A DNA stretch of 64,000 nt from Escherichia coli (GTDB lineage Bacteria > Pseudomonadota > Gammaproteobacteria > Enterobacterales > Enterobacteriaceae): assembly GCF_044324785.1 (NCBI RefSeq), contig NZ_CP172127.1; one strand, written 5' to 3'. Of the stretch, positions 46,342 to 50,496 are shown one piece after another. A program made the translations under genes and the position numbers. The notes below the pieces were generated by a model. It searched no databases, had not been told where the DNA came from, and worked only from the letters and a program-made list of their open reading frames with translations. Numbering within the stretch: the stretch's first letter is position 1; each line of letters starts with the position of its first letter.

Positions 46342-47685
46342 CTACTTCAGAAAATCCTTCACATCCAGTAGAATAAACTCGTTGTCATCCGCCATATTAG
46401 GCCAGCGGCTGGAGGAAAACGGGAAGTTATTATCGTTGCCTACGATGATGTGGTTAGTGTCAACCACATCCACGTTCTCGATGGTGAAGAACGGGAAGGT
46501 CAGCACACCGTCGTTCAGCGGCTTGCGTGCCAGCTTGTTCGGATCCTGAATCTTCATCAGGTCAATATAGCCCAGTTTTTCGACAGGTTTTCCGACGTTA
46601 GTGTCCGAGAAAGCAATTTTATACACCCGTTTGAACCTGGCTACTTGACTGAAGCAGTTGTTGGTCGGCGCGCCGGCGACGCAGGCTTTATCCGCCGTGC
46701 CTTCGCCGTTATCACGCTCGATCACCAGTCCGTGGGTATCATCTATCATATTGAAGTCGCCGATGGCGTTCTGGTTGTCTTCCAGCACGTACTGCCAGCT
46801 GCGACCAGTCCAGGCCTGCTGTTTGGCATCGAACTCCAGCACACGCAGGTAGCGTTTTCCGTCAACGTTCTCGAACTGCTCACCGTCCCACAATGCCCCT
46901 TCCAGCAGCGGATACAGCTTACTGCCGTCCGGCGAGATGGCCATGCCTTCAAAGCCTTTGGAACGCGCCACCTGGAAGTTCAGCTTACCGTCCGGAGCGC
47001 TAGGTAGAGTCAGCGTCGGGTTGTCCGGCGATTTAACCACCTTACCGTCCACTTCTGTGTCGAACACCGCCAGCACCTTGCCGTTCAGGTCGGTCTTGAT
47101 CAGGTAAGGACCGAACTCATCACCGATCCATAAGGCATCGTCGGAAAACTGGAAGCTTTCCGGATCAAAATCGCTGCCGGTCAGATAGCGTAGTTCGGTG
47201 CTCTCGTTGATGATGTGGAACGGCACCTTTTTATCCGGATCATGCAGGAACAGCGTCTTCAGCGGTACTACCGAGCCGTCTTTGAAATCTATCTTGTATT
47301 GGTTGAGGTACAGCATGGCGTCCGGGGAGTTGGCTTTGCTGCCGAAGCCATTGTCAGTCAGCACCCAATAGGTACCGTCGGGCATGTGTTTGATACCTGA
47401 GTGGCCCTGCAACGGCTGACCATTGATCGGCAGGCTGAGTCCTGTCAGGCGTTCTGCGGATTTGCCCGCCACGCTGCCCAGCTCGGTGACGCGTTTGCCG
47501 CTGGTGTATTTGCCGCTCTGTTGCAAATCGCCCGGCGCATCCTTCGGTGTTGAAACAGCGGATTTTGCCGGCAGAATTGCATGCCCGGCCAGCGTTGCCT
47601 GCACCGGCTGCGCTTTGGCCCACAGGTTGGCGCTCAGAGCCATGCAGCCAACCAGTATAGCCAGCCGGATTTTGGAGTTGTGCAT
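46342..47685 (-). CDS. Secreted phytase-like esterase family protein
   Basis: 447-aa ORF with signal peptide MHNSKIRLAILVGCMALSANLWA; family call by eye. Confidence 0.5.
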   Translation of the reverse strand: MHNSKIRLAILVGCMALSANLWAKAQPVQATLAGHAILPAKSAVSTPKDAPGDLQQSGKYTSGKRVTELGSVAGKSAERLTGLSLPINGQPLQGHSGIKHMPDGTYWVLTDNGFGSKANSPDAMLYLNQYKIDFKDGSVVPLKTLFLHDPDKKVPFHIINESTELRYLTGSDFDPESFQFSDDALWIGDEFGPYLIKTDLNGKVLAVFDTEVDGKVVKSPDNPTLTLPSAPDGKLNFQVARSKGFEGMAISPDGSKLYPLLEGALWDGEQFENVDGKRYLRVLEFDAKQQAWTGRSWQYVLEDNQNAIGDFNMIDDTHGLVIERDNGEGTADKACVAGAPTNNCFSQVARFKRVYKIAFSDTNVGKPVEKLGYIDLMKIQDPNKLARKPLNDGVLTFPFFTIENVDVVDTNHIIVGNDNNFPFSSSRWPNMADDNEFILLDVKDFLK

Positions 47686-48059
47686 GTCATACTCTCCTTT
47701 CGTTGTTATCGCCCAGAAGTAAAACTAACGTCATTGTAGGGAGCAGAAATGACAGAAATATTATGATTACGGTAGGGATAGCCGTTGCCGGCTTCCCCGC
47801 CATGTCAACGCCGGTATTTATGGTTTCTGTTTGCTTTTCTGTAAAAATAAAGGGGAGAGACGACGGTACTATAAACAACCATGATGAATCTCATCTATTC
47901 GGCCCAGATGAAAGACGCGCGTGAGGCTCTTGTTCGTTAAGCGGATACGTATATCCTGTACAATAATCAGATATACCTCACAGGGTCTAACACTTTATCA
48001 TCAACGAGTTGCAGATCAGATAGTCATACGGTTGCTGCGTGCTTTAGCTGGCTGAATAC

Positions 48060-49045
48060 AGCCTGAAATCATCACCGTAATGACATGATGCCCAGCACAG
48101 CCTTACCTTTCTGGCGGCGATGGCCACAACAGCGCGTCAGTATTCTCTGCGTTCAACCAGTGAACAGACCCAACGACTGAATGAGTCAGTCCTTTTCTCA
48201 GCACCAATCAGTACTGAACGAGCCCCCTGAACCAGAAGCATTCGCAGATACGAATCACCGGCTTTTGTTATCCTGCCCAGCTTCGACATTCAGCCGCTGC
48301 TGTATTGTGATAGCGTCAGCCCAGCCAGGCTGCCAGTTGCCGTCCCTTTTTAAAATCATGTGCATTACCGATACAGGCAACCAGCGCACAGGCTGTTGTG
48401 GGACCAACTCCTTTTAGCTCCATCAGCTGTTTAATACGGATATCATCCCTTGCAGCCTCATGAAGACGGTGGTCATGAGACGATATGAGTTCATTTTACT
48501 CTGACAGTTCGCACAACAAACGGATGAAGGGTCATTCCACTGCCCCTGGGCAGTATTCCCTGCTGGATTTTACGCACGTGCCTTATCCCCACAGGCAGCA
48601 GCAGACCAAATTCACTCAACAGCCCCCGGATTTCATTACGCAACGCCGTTCGCTCGCGGATGATTCTGGCCCGGACCCGGTATTCTTCCTGTAACGTCTG
48701 CTGGGATTCCGATATGAAAACAACAAATCGCATGCCGGGCCTGCTGACGGCCTCACAGATGGCAGCTGCATTATTAGCGTCGTTTTTGTTACCTTTGAGA
48801 TAAGATTTGACAAGTTTCTACGGAATAATGCGCACGGTAGGCCCCATACGGAATGAGTTCCCGTGCCCAGAATGGGAAGAGCCACAGACTTCGATGCTGA
48901 TGAGGCAGGGAGAAAGCCCGGAGAAAAACGTCATCATGTGGGGAGGGCTCAGCGTTTTTCTCCGTACCACTATTCATTGTGATCAACGCCGTGGATTTGA
49001 AAAACATTTTTCGGCAAGATCGAAACCAATACGATTAATATTCAT
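48060..49045 (-). pseudogene. IS110-family transposase, multiply frameshifted
   Basis: N-terminal MNINRIGFDLAEK, central ARIIRERTALRNEIRGLLSEFGLLLP and C-terminal GVGPTTACALVACIGNAHDFKKGRQLAAWLG in three different frames. Confidence 0.5.
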
Positions 49046-49179
49046 GACTGACTTCTCCACCAGGGAACTGGGTACATCTCAGTCTGGAACGTTGATGCCG
49101 TAAGGAGGAAGATGTCAATCACATCGGCCTACACGCGATGTTAGCTCAGATAGGCGAAACGTATCCGACATTACACTGG

Positions 49180-50496
49180 TTAAGACTTCGTCGATTTCTC
49201 AAAGCGGCGTAGTAACTGATTCCCACGCTCAACGGCGGTATCCAGCGCCTGCTGTGGCGTCTTCTTACCGGTCCACACGCTCTCAAGCTCTTCATCCACA
49301 ATCGCTCTGATCTGCGGCATGTTGCCCAGACGTAGTCCTTTGGTGAACGGTAACGACGGTTTGTTCAGCATCTGACGTGTCGCGATATCCGCCCCTGGGT
49401 TTTTCTCGTAAAAGCCCTGCTCACGGGTCAGGTCATACGCCGCTTTGGTGATTGGCAGATAACCGGTTTTCTGGTGCCACTCGGCAGCATTTTCTGGCTT
49501 CGCGAGGAAGTCGAGGAACTTCGCCACGCCGGTATACGTTTCTTTATCTTTGCCCTGCATCACCCACAGGCTGGCTCCGCCGATAATGGCGTTTTGTGGT
49601 GCATCTTTCGCGTCAGCGTCGTAAGGCATCATGCCTACGCCGTAGTTGAATTTGGCGTACTCGCGAATGCTGGCAAGAGAACCAGAAGAGGCAGTCGTCA
49701 TTGCGCAATCACCGTTATAGAACTTCTCGGTGGATTCATCCTTACGCCCGACGTAGCTGAAATCGCCTTTCTTGTTCATCTCTTCGAGCATGGCGATGTG
49801 TTTCACCTGCTCCGGCTTGTTGAACTCCAGCACCGCATCTGTGCCGTCAAAGCCGTTGTTTTTGCTGGCAAACGGCAGACCGTTCCAGGCGCTAAAGTTT
49901 TCCAGTTGGATCCAGCCCTGCCAGCCGCTGGAGTAGCCGCACTTCATACCGGAGGCTTTCAGTTTCGCGGCATAGTCCGCCAGATCCTGCCAGGTTTTCG
50001 GCGGCTGTTCCGGGTCTAATCCTGCTTTCTTGAAAGCATCTTTGTTGTAATAGAGAACAGGAGTCGAGCTGTTGAACGGCTGGGAGAGTAAGTGTCCGGT
50101 TTTACTGTCGGAGTAGTAGCCTGAAACCGTCGGCACAAACTGCGACTCATCAAAGTTAATCCCCGCCTCTTTAAACACGTCATACACCGGTTTAATGGCT
50201 TTCGACGCCATCATGGTGGCGGTGCCAACTTCATAAACCTGCAAAATAGCCGGAGCGTTACCGGTACGAAATGCTGCGATCCCCGCACTTAAACTCTCTT
50301 CGTAGTTGCCTTTATAAGTCGGTATAATTTTGTAATCCGGGTTTTCGGCGTTAAAACGTTGGACCAGAGAATTCACCTCTTTACCCAGTTCCCCTTCCAT
50401 AGAGTGCCAGAACGGAATGGTCGTCACTGCCTGTGCATTCCCCATTAACGTCAGTCCGAGCACTAGTGCTGAAGCTGTATAATGTAACGGTTTCAT
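49180..50496 (-). CDS. ugpB: sn-glycerol-3-phosphate ABC transporter periplasmic binding protein, no cognate permease genes adjacent
   Basis: 438-aa ORF with signal peptide; recognised as UgpB-like from memory; ugpAEC absent downstream. Confidence 0.75.

Follow-up and report, generated by a model that had tools for sequence, protein, structure and literature searches.

A ugpB-like gene without ugpA, ugpE or ugpC, a gene for a secreted phytase-like protein and a frameshifted IS110-family transposase lie side by side in Escherichia coli, and this arrangement raises the question of whether the two intact genes work together or were simply brought together. The locus was examined within a window of 64,000 nucleotides, the whole stretch of DNA that was analyzed. 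All three elements were recovered where a previous reading of the DNA, made from the sequence only (the sequence-only reading), had placed them; that reading proposed either a binding-protein plus hydrolase pair for organophosphate scavenging or the remnant of a disrupted operon. The locus is an ordinary island mosaic and not a new system. Our best explanation, which we consider probable, is that the segment is an IS-scrambled part of the island in which two unrelated, intact genes, each preceded by Pho boxes, have been juxtaposed.

The window is part of a selC-inserted ExPEC/APEC island of the PAI I5155 type, and many APEC/ExPEC chromosomes match it at 100% identity. In the island-bearing strain CLSC36 the island extends from setC to the integrase and tRNA-Sec. 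PAI I5155 carries ireA and an AatA-type autotransporter (PMC4232414), both of which are also found on the CLSC36 island. The tkt1 island was suspected from nearby transketolase and PTS genes and was rejected, as the locus here is inserted at selC; the tkt1 island lies between metE and ysgA with other content (PMC3349570) and is thus not the island of this window.

The orphan ugpB (49180..50496, minus strand) is intact, encodes a protein of 438 amino acids with a signal peptide, and represents a second, xenologous copy. The predicted protein scored 931.9 bits against the NCBIfam UgpB equivalog NF008211 (cut-off 411) and also matched SBP_bac_1 and SBP_bac_8. A phmmer comparison with PDB 4AQ4 gave an E value of 1e-281 at 97% identity, and the ligand contacts Y42, E66, S121, W169, W172 and R374 (4AQ4/mature numbering), whose roles have been described directly (bioRxiv 10.1101/529602) and by homology (PMC12718374), are all identical in the island protein. 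Judging from these sequence features, the island UgpB would bind G3P and glycerophosphodiesters and support Ugp-dependent uptake. Compared with core alleles, identity was ~94-95% at the nucleotide level and 96.6% at the amino acid level with a dN/dS of 0.06-0.09; this low pairwise ratio mostly reflects divergence that preceded capture. The native ugp promoter region (50497..50657, minus strand) was captured along with ugpB and retains the Pho boxes of the core ugp locus, e.g. CTGTCATCTTTCTAACAC at 50619-50636.

In CLSC36 the island ugpB is accompanied by an intact core ugpBAECQ operon at 394,542-399,497, and two ugpB places were found in island-bearing records. The comparison with the chromosomal ugp locus suggested by the sequence-only reading is therefore settled against this copy being the only ugpB in the genome. 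Neither ugpA, ugpE nor ugpC was found after the island ugpB or elsewhere in the window, and the gene does not head an operon. Homology to the core ugp locus covers 49125-50657 (~1.53 kb, ~93%) and goes no further. Its 3' end is a homologue of the core ugpB-ugpA spacer (49125..49179, minus strand) that terminates in a truncated REP, GTAGGCCG (49125-49132), abutting the left end of the IS110 element. The break falls 55 bp past the ugpB stop codon, inside the REP between ugpB and ugpA, and past this point the core locus reads on as GTAGGCCGGATAAGCGAAGCGCATCCGGCAC. Because the ugp homology stops in the REP precisely where the left end of the IS110 element lies, the operon cut at this site was a foreign one of Escherichia type. 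The island ugpB is a fragment of that operon, and the resident operon is not the one disrupted. The earlier suggestion of a disrupted operon was thus correct for ugpB, except that the operon was foreign and the resident one is intact in CLSC36.

E. coli and E. albertii, the only Escherichia among the matches listed, were considered as donors of ugpB and were not close (94.2% and 93.8% nucleotide identity, respectively). The core allele P0129 (L107), at 98.2% amino acid identity, was also set aside; it is a mosaic, island-like in the first 300 nt only. The proposed sequence of events would start from a ~1.53-kb piece of another Escherichia-type chromosome that held ugpB with its PhoB promoter on one side and 55 bp of the ugpB-ugpA spacer on the other. 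An IS110-family element that targets REPs would have entered the REP just 3' of ugpB, with the ugpAECQ genes beyond it now gone, and the element would then have decayed.

The dead IS110-family insertion sequence occupies 47790..49124 (minus strand). The debris described by the sequence-only reading is therefore present, but it separates the two genes instead of bounding them. The element contains a transposase pseudogene at ~48044-49045 with ~80 bp of non-coding sequence 5' and ~255 bp 3' of it. RefSeq labels the transposase a pseudogene ('frameshifted; internal stop'), and alignment to an intact relative revealed at least two frameshifts and at least five in-frame stops, the mark of an element that is no longer intact. 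A tblastn search with an intact plasmid IS110 transposase aligned residues 1-340; the N-terminal portion was 36% identical and the C-terminal portion 71-81%. The 5' half of the element resembled a degenerate copy in E2348/69 (87.6%) and the 3' half resembled plasmid IS110 elements (~93%), with the switch near 48425, and the element is possibly chimeric. The junction GTAGGCCG|ATGTGAT is also present at the related degenerate IS in E2348/69, consistent with insertion at a REP target. An Rfam scan of 45000-52000 yielded no RNA family, and thus none in the non-coding ends of the IS. Part of the decay of the element could predate the present arrangement.

The outer flanks consist of further fragments. 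Upstream of ugpB, a pemK/mazF-like toxin locus fragment (50645..50960, plus strand; 73-78% identity to plasmid pemK loci) is joined directly to the upstream end of the ugp homology and includes a truncated 61-aa toxin ORF at 50667-50852 in the RefSeq annotation. Beyond it, on the far side of ugpB, lies a frameshifted IS3-family (DDE integrase) remnant (51630..52673, plus strand; annotated 'frameshifted; internal stop'). Downstream, 3' of the phytase-like gene, is a short repeated fragment (46204..46338, no strand assigned) with 87-90% matches over query positions 5-139, resembling sequence that adjoins or underlies annotated IS4-family transposases in other E. coli. In five genomes and plasmids (L096, L102, L104, L007 and L008) homology to the locus stops at 46240 and is followed by IS1.

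The phytase-like gene (46342..47685, minus strand) is intact and encodes 447 amino acids with a full-length match to PF13449, 'esterase-like activity of phytase' (E=5e-61). The N-terminal sequence, MHNSKIRLAILVGCMALSANLWA|KA, has the form of a Sec signal peptide, and the protein is predicted to be a periplasmic beta-propeller, in keeping with the fold of this Pfam family. It did not group with canonical beta-propeller phytases of the Bacillus PhyC type, either by sequence or by close structural similarity. A PDB sequence search returned no related sequence, Foldseek matched generic propellers only (TM ~0.3) and assigned no activity, NCBIfam held no model for the protein, and literature searches for a characterized PF13449 phytase-like member found none. 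In some database records close homologues carry the name 'glycerophosphodiester phosphodiesterase', by annotation only. The protein shows 92% identity to proteins of Serratia marcescens, and the gene stands alone in every other taxon sampled. A polymorphism-based look for selection on the gene yielded 4 nonsynonymous and 3 synonymous SNPs, numbers too small for interpretation.

Upstream of the phytase-like gene, the copies in Serratia fonticola and Salmonella remain homologous at the DNA level up to 47764. An IS2 insertion at 47789-47794 is also found among strains. A Pho promoter was taken as an 18-bp box of two CTGTCAT-like repeats 11 bp apart that replaces the -35 element and lies ~10 bp before the -10. 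This motif was found in a putative PhoB-dependent promoter (47733..47766, minus strand), comprising the Pho-box-like 18-mer TCATAATATTTCTGTCAT (47749-47766), a 10-nt spacer and the -10 hexamer TACAAT (47733-47738). The proximal half-site of the E. coli box is perfect, and the distal one is weak and lies 2 nt away from its position in S. fonticola. The combination of Pho box, 10 nt and -10 hexamer was present in 6/7 orthologue upstream regions, with a chance expectation of at most ~0.01 per sequence; six lineages share [C/T/A]TGTCA[T/C] + 10 nt + TAnnnT, located 77-93 nt before the start codon. In the explanation favored here, the phytase-like gene is a monocistronic gene of Serratia type with its own conserved Pho-box promoter.

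The two genes thus have separate promoters and are separated by 1.3 kb of dead IS. No UgpB-like gene was found beside phytase-like homologues in six contexts (Serratia, Salmonella (plasmid), Providencia, Pectobacterium, Halotalea and Cupriavidus), and none of the ugpB genes in 80 Enterobacterales loci had a phytase-like gene within 7 kb, so that the synteny expected of a conserved pair is absent. An ancestral ugp-phytase synteny was also considered, prompted by a yhhA-like DUF2756 gene beside the Salmonella plasmid homologue, and is unsupported because 0/80 of those ugpB loci have a phytase-like neighbor. The adjacency is, as part of the same explanation and with the same degree of confidence, probably an accident of IS-mediated assembly and not an ancestral operon. 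Since its assembly, the trio of ugpB, IS remnant and phytase-like gene has stayed together through inheritance and transfer: its spacing was the same in each of the 10 contexts sampled, some of them bounded by IS1. Co-selection of the two genes could also explain this preservation. On P1-like plasmids the phytase-like gene and half of the dead IS lie between two IS1 copies without ugpB, and this segment also occurs on E. fergusonii plasmids.

It seems rather doubtful that the island ugpB is a functionless hitch-hiker, recently captured, not yet decayed and carried along only by its linkage to useful island genes (ireA, aatA, the heme receptor gene and the phytase-like gene, for example). Although the gene is surrounded by pemK, IS3 and IS110 debris, its signal peptide, ligand residues and promoter are intact, and no disabling lesion was detected in the ugpB or phytase-like ORFs (1.3 kb each) versus at least seven in ~1 kb of the intervening IS. 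The missing operon partners, and a resident operon that makes the island copy redundant, are what a passenger would show, whereas the exact island UgpB protein is indexed in 5224 blocks of the assembly collection. The island lineage has 15-17 amino acid changes compared with 6-9 in orthologues at similar dS, a ~2-fold excess that could mean relaxed constraint; however, the divergent island haplotype (L099, L103) carries 5-6 ugpB differences, all of them synonymous, a comparison that is biased because the loci were retrieved by exact protein identity. A passenger would also be consistent with the mobilization of the phytase-like gene without ugpB, and with strain MB20 (L102), where IS1 lies 16 bp upstream of the ugpB ATG, at 50512, and the Pho promoter is lost while the gene is still present.

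We hold with equal reserve the possibility that the orphan UgpB has been retained because it serves a function in its own right, and that it is co-mobilized with a Pho-regulated propeller phosphoesterase as a ~4.3-kb phosphate-starvation cassette of ExPEC islands and IS1 composite units. One option is that it acts as a transporter-independent, Pho-/bile-inducible periplasmic chaperone, with the additional dose making the cell more tolerant of bile; core UgpB has been described as a bile-responsive chaperone that confers bile resistance upon overexpression (PMC8144458). Another option is an auxiliary UgpB that supplies the resident UgpAEC and has a shifted specificity, in view of the substitutions beside Tyr42, Trp169 and Arg374. 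A scavenging cassette of co-selected partners, in which the phytase-like enzyme cleaves host organophosphates (glycerophosphodiesters or lysophospholipids) and UgpB captures the product, is improbable and the least credible of these readings, for although Pho boxes before both genes fit phosphate scavenging, the trio is identically spaced in every chromosomal context sampled and IS1-bounded in some genomes, and phosphodiesterase names are attached to some close homologues (annotation only), the pair proposed by the sequence-only reading is disfavored by different donors (an Escherichia allele and a Serratia-type gene), by separate promoters, by the lack of pairing in the six homologue contexts and 80 ugpB loci, by the solitary phytase-like gene on plasmids, and by a protein with no related PDB sequence and only generic propeller fold matches.

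Returning to the accidental juxtaposition of two Pho-preceded genes, these are probably independent, functional members of the Pho regulon, with the island UgpB probably feeding the resident UgpAEC. Upon phosphate limitation, PhoB would turn on both ugpB and the phytase-like gene. The island UgpB would be exported, bind glycerol-3-phosphate or glycerophosphodiesters and deliver them to the resident UgpAEC, to which it may dock, given 96.6% identity with the resident UgpB and conservation of every ligand contact; in this role it would be a spare binding protein adding to the dosage. The propeller protein would act separately in the periplasm as a putative phosphate-starvation phosphoesterase. 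The layout of the locus, the second-copy status of ugpB, its truncation point, the differing origins of the two genes and the promoter motifs are directly shown, while expression, PhoB control, docking and enzyme activity are inferred. If both genes are expressed under phosphate limitation, they would equip APEC/ExPEC lineages that have the selC island with a small accessory capacity for phosphate scavenging or against envelope stress, a minor fitness trait, if true, and no new mechanism. Furthermore, the locus suggests that insertion of a REP-targeting IS110-family element can sever the first gene of an operon cleanly from the rest, so that promoter and gene survive intact as a cassette and go on to enter the mobile gene pool. 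PF13449, a widespread family with a conserved Pho-box promoter, is a reasonable target for biochemistry.

Compared with known systems, the element between the genes resembles REP-targeting IS110-family insertion sequences, of which IS621 is an example, in its homologous transposase remnant, its fixed insertion position in the REP and a second related copy with the same junction; it differs in being dead and possibly chimeric, with its long non-coding end 3' of the transposase. The phytase-like protein resembles other PF13449 phytase-like proteins in its full-length Pfam match, signal peptide, stand-alone gene and 92% identity to S. marcescens, and a member of this family has been listed in another enterobacterial pathogenicity island (PMC6980539). 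The island UgpB shares with E. coli UgpB of ugpBAECQ 96.6-97% amino acid identity, the same length, a Sec signal, the ligand contacts and a Pho-box promoter region. Unlike the core copy, which is next to livF, it lies in a selC island without ugpAECQ, and it differs at 15 amino acids, including Q44E, N45S, A166S and V375A, which are sequence-adjacent to the contacts Y42, W169 and R374. Shared translocators offer a further comparison: LivJ and LivK share LivHMGF, and HisJ and ArgT share HisQMP. For those pairs a common translocator has been demonstrated, and the partners have different specificities, whereas for the island UgpB it is near-identity, as known from the sequence, that suggests sharing; as in those systems, a binding protein encoded on the island, away from the permease genes, could plausibly dock with a translocator encoded elsewhere.

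The open reading frame at 49180-50496 (minus strand) scored 931.9 bits against the NCBIfam UgpB equivalog model (cut-off 411), which bears out its earlier description as a UgpB-like gene. Matches to the ugpB region occurred in almost every E. coli genome, where they were confined to 49125-50657 at 92-93.4% identity; matches of at least 95% were found in about 205 genomes, with two places per record among the matches listed. The island-bearing E. coli strain CLSC36 contains the island copy as well as an intact livKHMGF-ugpBAECQ-yhhA-ggt locus (394.5-399.5 kb), and the alternative raised by the sequence-only reading, that this is the only ugpB in the genome, therefore fails. 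Against three E. coli core alleles, the island coding sequence showed 94.2-95.0% nucleotide and 96.6-96.8% amino-acid identity, and against that of E. albertii 93.8% nucleotide identity, distances similar to those of these orthologues among themselves. By these identities the allele is assigned to the genus Escherichia, and no donor lineage was found among the matches listed (E. coli core alleles, E. albertii). The 13-kb liv-ugp-ggt locus of GCA_041090155.1, labelled E. coli, shared just 95.6% identity with the typical E. coli locus, and its core ugpB was island-like in the first 300 nt only (5 differences versus 19), which indicates that ugpB alleles in the genus are recombinant mosaics, with deep allelic mosaicism at ugp.

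The captured ugp fragment takes along 161 bp of native promoter with Pho boxes, and sequence comparison identifies ugpB at the island as a second, foreign copy excised from an operon. Downstream, ugp homology ends at GTAGGCCG, which in the core locus is the start of a REP element (GTAGGCCGGATAAGCGAAGCGCATCCGGCAC) within the ugpB-ugpA spacer; an IS110-family element (ATGTGATTGACA...) begins with its left end at the very next base. The same junction of GTAGGCCG with ATGTGATGGACA is shared by a related degenerate IS110 copy in EPEC E2348/69, between rrf and kgtP. Site-specific insertion into REP elements is known for some IS110-family members, and the occurrence of one junction at two loci argues that such an element inserted site-specifically in a REP here. 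Aligned by tblastn with an intact plasmid IS110 transposase, the remnant (47790-49124, minus strand) showed two frame changes and at least 5 in-frame stops, in keeping with the multiply frameshifted transposase previously noted; it lies, however, between ugpB and the phytase-like gene rather than bounding them as had been claimed. At its right end (47790) there was no continuation into the remaining REP or ugpA, and 26 bp of unattributed sequence is followed by the phytase-like promoter. The 5' half of the remnant resembles the E2348/69 copy (87.6%) and the 3' half plasmid IS110 elements (about 93%), with the switch near 48425 within a conserved motif. A recombination event between two IS copies would fit this pattern, with fusion of two loci and loss of ugpAECQ, though the comparison elements could instead be the recombinants. 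Upstream, ugp homology is joined directly to a pemK-like fragment, part of a truncated pemK/mazF-like toxin locus (50645-50960) with 73-78% identity to plasmid copies of Xylella, Azotobacter, and E. coli, and no IS is present at the ugp junction.

The E2348/69 IS110 copy (NZ_CP059840.2, about 1804-2955) carries about 19 tandem GGGTCC hexamers inside its transposase remnant, versus only about two at 48650-48665 of the window. Non-coding DNA of the window remnant comprises about 80 bp 5' of the transposase start and about 255 bp 3' of the stop (47790-48044, up to the right end). The long non-coding end of the IS110 family can encode a guide (bridge/seek) RNA; an Rfam scan of 45000-52000, which covers the IS non-coding ends, matched no family.

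The secreted phytase-like gene was likewise confirmed, as the ORF at 46342-47685 (minus strand) has a full-length PF13449 match (E=5e-61) and a Sec-type signal peptide. Its closest named relatives are chromosomal proteins of Serratia marcescens/ureilytica (92% amino acid identity), with S. fonticola and a Salmonella plasmid copy next (84-85%), and DNA homology to the latter two comprises the ORF and only about 78 bp upstream. Stand-alone homologues occur in unrelated neighbourhoods in S. fonticola, a Salmonella plasmid, Providencia stuartii, Pectobacterium, Halotalea, and Cupriavidus, and no UgpB-like binding protein was found nearby in these six contexts. A family member is orf34 in the Shigella SRL island list (PMC6980539). 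On the E. coli P1-like phage-plasmids pLR-64-1_1 and strain E2 p1, a segment corresponding to 46240-48601, with the phytase-like gene and the 3' half of the already-dead IS110 remnant, lies between two IS1 copies; the same segment is found on E. fergusonii plasmids, several of which match 47780-48413 at 100% identity. These comparisons identify the phytase-like gene as an independent Serratia-type unit. The homologue on the Salmonella plasmid contigs (8001-10052) precedes a DUF2756 gene with 69% identity to E. coli YhhA, which in the core ugp locus is encoded beside ugpQ. The ancestral ugp-phytase neighbourhood at which this hints is not supported, since 0 of 80 Enterobacterales ugpB loci had a phytase-like gene in flanks of up to 7 kb.

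Upstream of the start codon by 77-93 nt, 6 of 7 orthologues have a Pho-box-like 18-mer ending [C/T/A]TGTCA[T/C], then exactly 10 nt, then a TAnnnT -10 hexamer; the chance of this pattern, composed after viewing the sequences, was at most about 0.01 per region in shuffled sequence. In Providencia the boxes form a tandem pair with just 2-3 mismatches to consensus; of the two half-sites in the E. coli copy, the proximal one matches perfectly and the distal one is shifted by 2 nt. As this layout is that of a textbook PhoB promoter, the family is very probably induced by phosphate starvation. In a subset of genomes (14 retrieved matches and comparison locus L097), IS2 (IS3-family) is inserted at 47789-47794 with a 6-bp junction overlap, between the IS110 right end and the phytase-like Pho box, where it could alter expression of the gene.

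Many chromosomes of avian and human extraintestinal E. coli matched the region 45300-51500 at 100% identity, and of 5426 complete genomes, 176 contained 80% of the region or more. As annotated in APEC O2-211, the surroundings form a mosaic island. It includes ireA, genes for PTS and transketolase functions, and those for a YadA-like adhesin and an MliC-like inhibitor, together with a nanE-like/PTS-EIICB/RpiR cluster, the phytase-like gene, the IS110 pseudogene, ugpB, and the pemK fragment. Farther along come an IS3 remnant, genes for a heme-type TonB-dependent receptor and a DUF4198 protein, copies of IS66, and genes for an autotransporter of 1165 aa and an integrase. In CLSC36 the island extends from setC to an integrase adjoining tRNA-Sec (selC) and yicJ, and identity with the tkt1 island was rejected on this placement. 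Gene content agrees with PAI I5155 of APEC IMT5155, which bears aatA and ireA (PMC4232414). Within the window, the stretch 42107-46185 holds an MliC-like lysozyme-inhibitor gene (42107-42445), then a three-gene sugar module (NanE-family ManNAc-6-P epimerase, PTS EIICB, and divergent RpiR/SIS regulator) that directly adjoins the phytase-like gene. The gene for the TonB-dependent receptor (heme/hemoglobin subfamily, TIGR01785, 414 bits) precedes that for the DUF4198 protein (52844-55624), and both are intact amid IS debris.

Several features speak for function: island ugpB has an intact signal peptide and promoter, and every known ligand-contact residue is conserved. At least 7 disabling lesions were counted in the IS gene versus none in both flanking 1.3-kb ORFs, and the index of the assembly collection lists the exact island protein in 5224 blocks. 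Between the window and a second island haplotype, about 0.3% divergent, 5-6 ugpB sites differ, all of them synonymously, a comparison biased by retrieval of the loci through exact protein identity. Counting against function are redundancy with the resident copy, an about 2-fold excess of amino-acid changes in the island lineage, and IS1 in place of the promoter in strain MB20 (CP073976.1), where it sits 16 bp ahead of the start codon (window 50512) and the whole Pho promoter is gone. dN/dS was 0.06-0.09 between island ugpB and orthologues versus 0.025-0.035 among orthologues, and of 9 changes in the mature protein, 4 (Q44E, N45S, A166S, V375A) are within 3 residues, in sequence, of contact residues. 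Island ugpB is probably a functional, spare foreign cassette. Most economically, the extra binding protein would work through resident UgpAEC; it could also act independently of the transporter, since core UgpB serves in the periplasm as a bile-responsive chaperone and confers bile resistance when overexpressed (PMC8144458).

Spacing across ugpB, the IS remnant, and the phytase-like gene was identical in 10 of 10 chromosomal contexts (retrieved by exact UgpB protein), despite differing or IS1-bounded outer flanks (comparison loci L096 and L104, and MB20), which argues that the block is co-inherited and sometimes co-mobilised. At the other end of the MB20 block, homology breaks off at 46240, the same endpoint as in the plasmid units flanked by IS1; with the IS1 near ugpB, this suggests that the block may act like a composite unit of IS1. 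The sequence-only reading was partly right: ugpB is a foreign allele cut from its operon at the REP/IS110 junction, but the proposed hydrolase pair is better read as linkage. Different origins, separate promoters, the lack of the pairing elsewhere, and movement of the phytase-like gene without ugpB all count against a designed partnership, and co-selection of two Pho-regulon genes is possible. The locus is an ordinary outcome of IS activity in a pathogenicity island, and both the ugpB cassette and the Serratia-type, very probably Pho-regulated propeller gene are members of already known kinds rather than a new kind of system.
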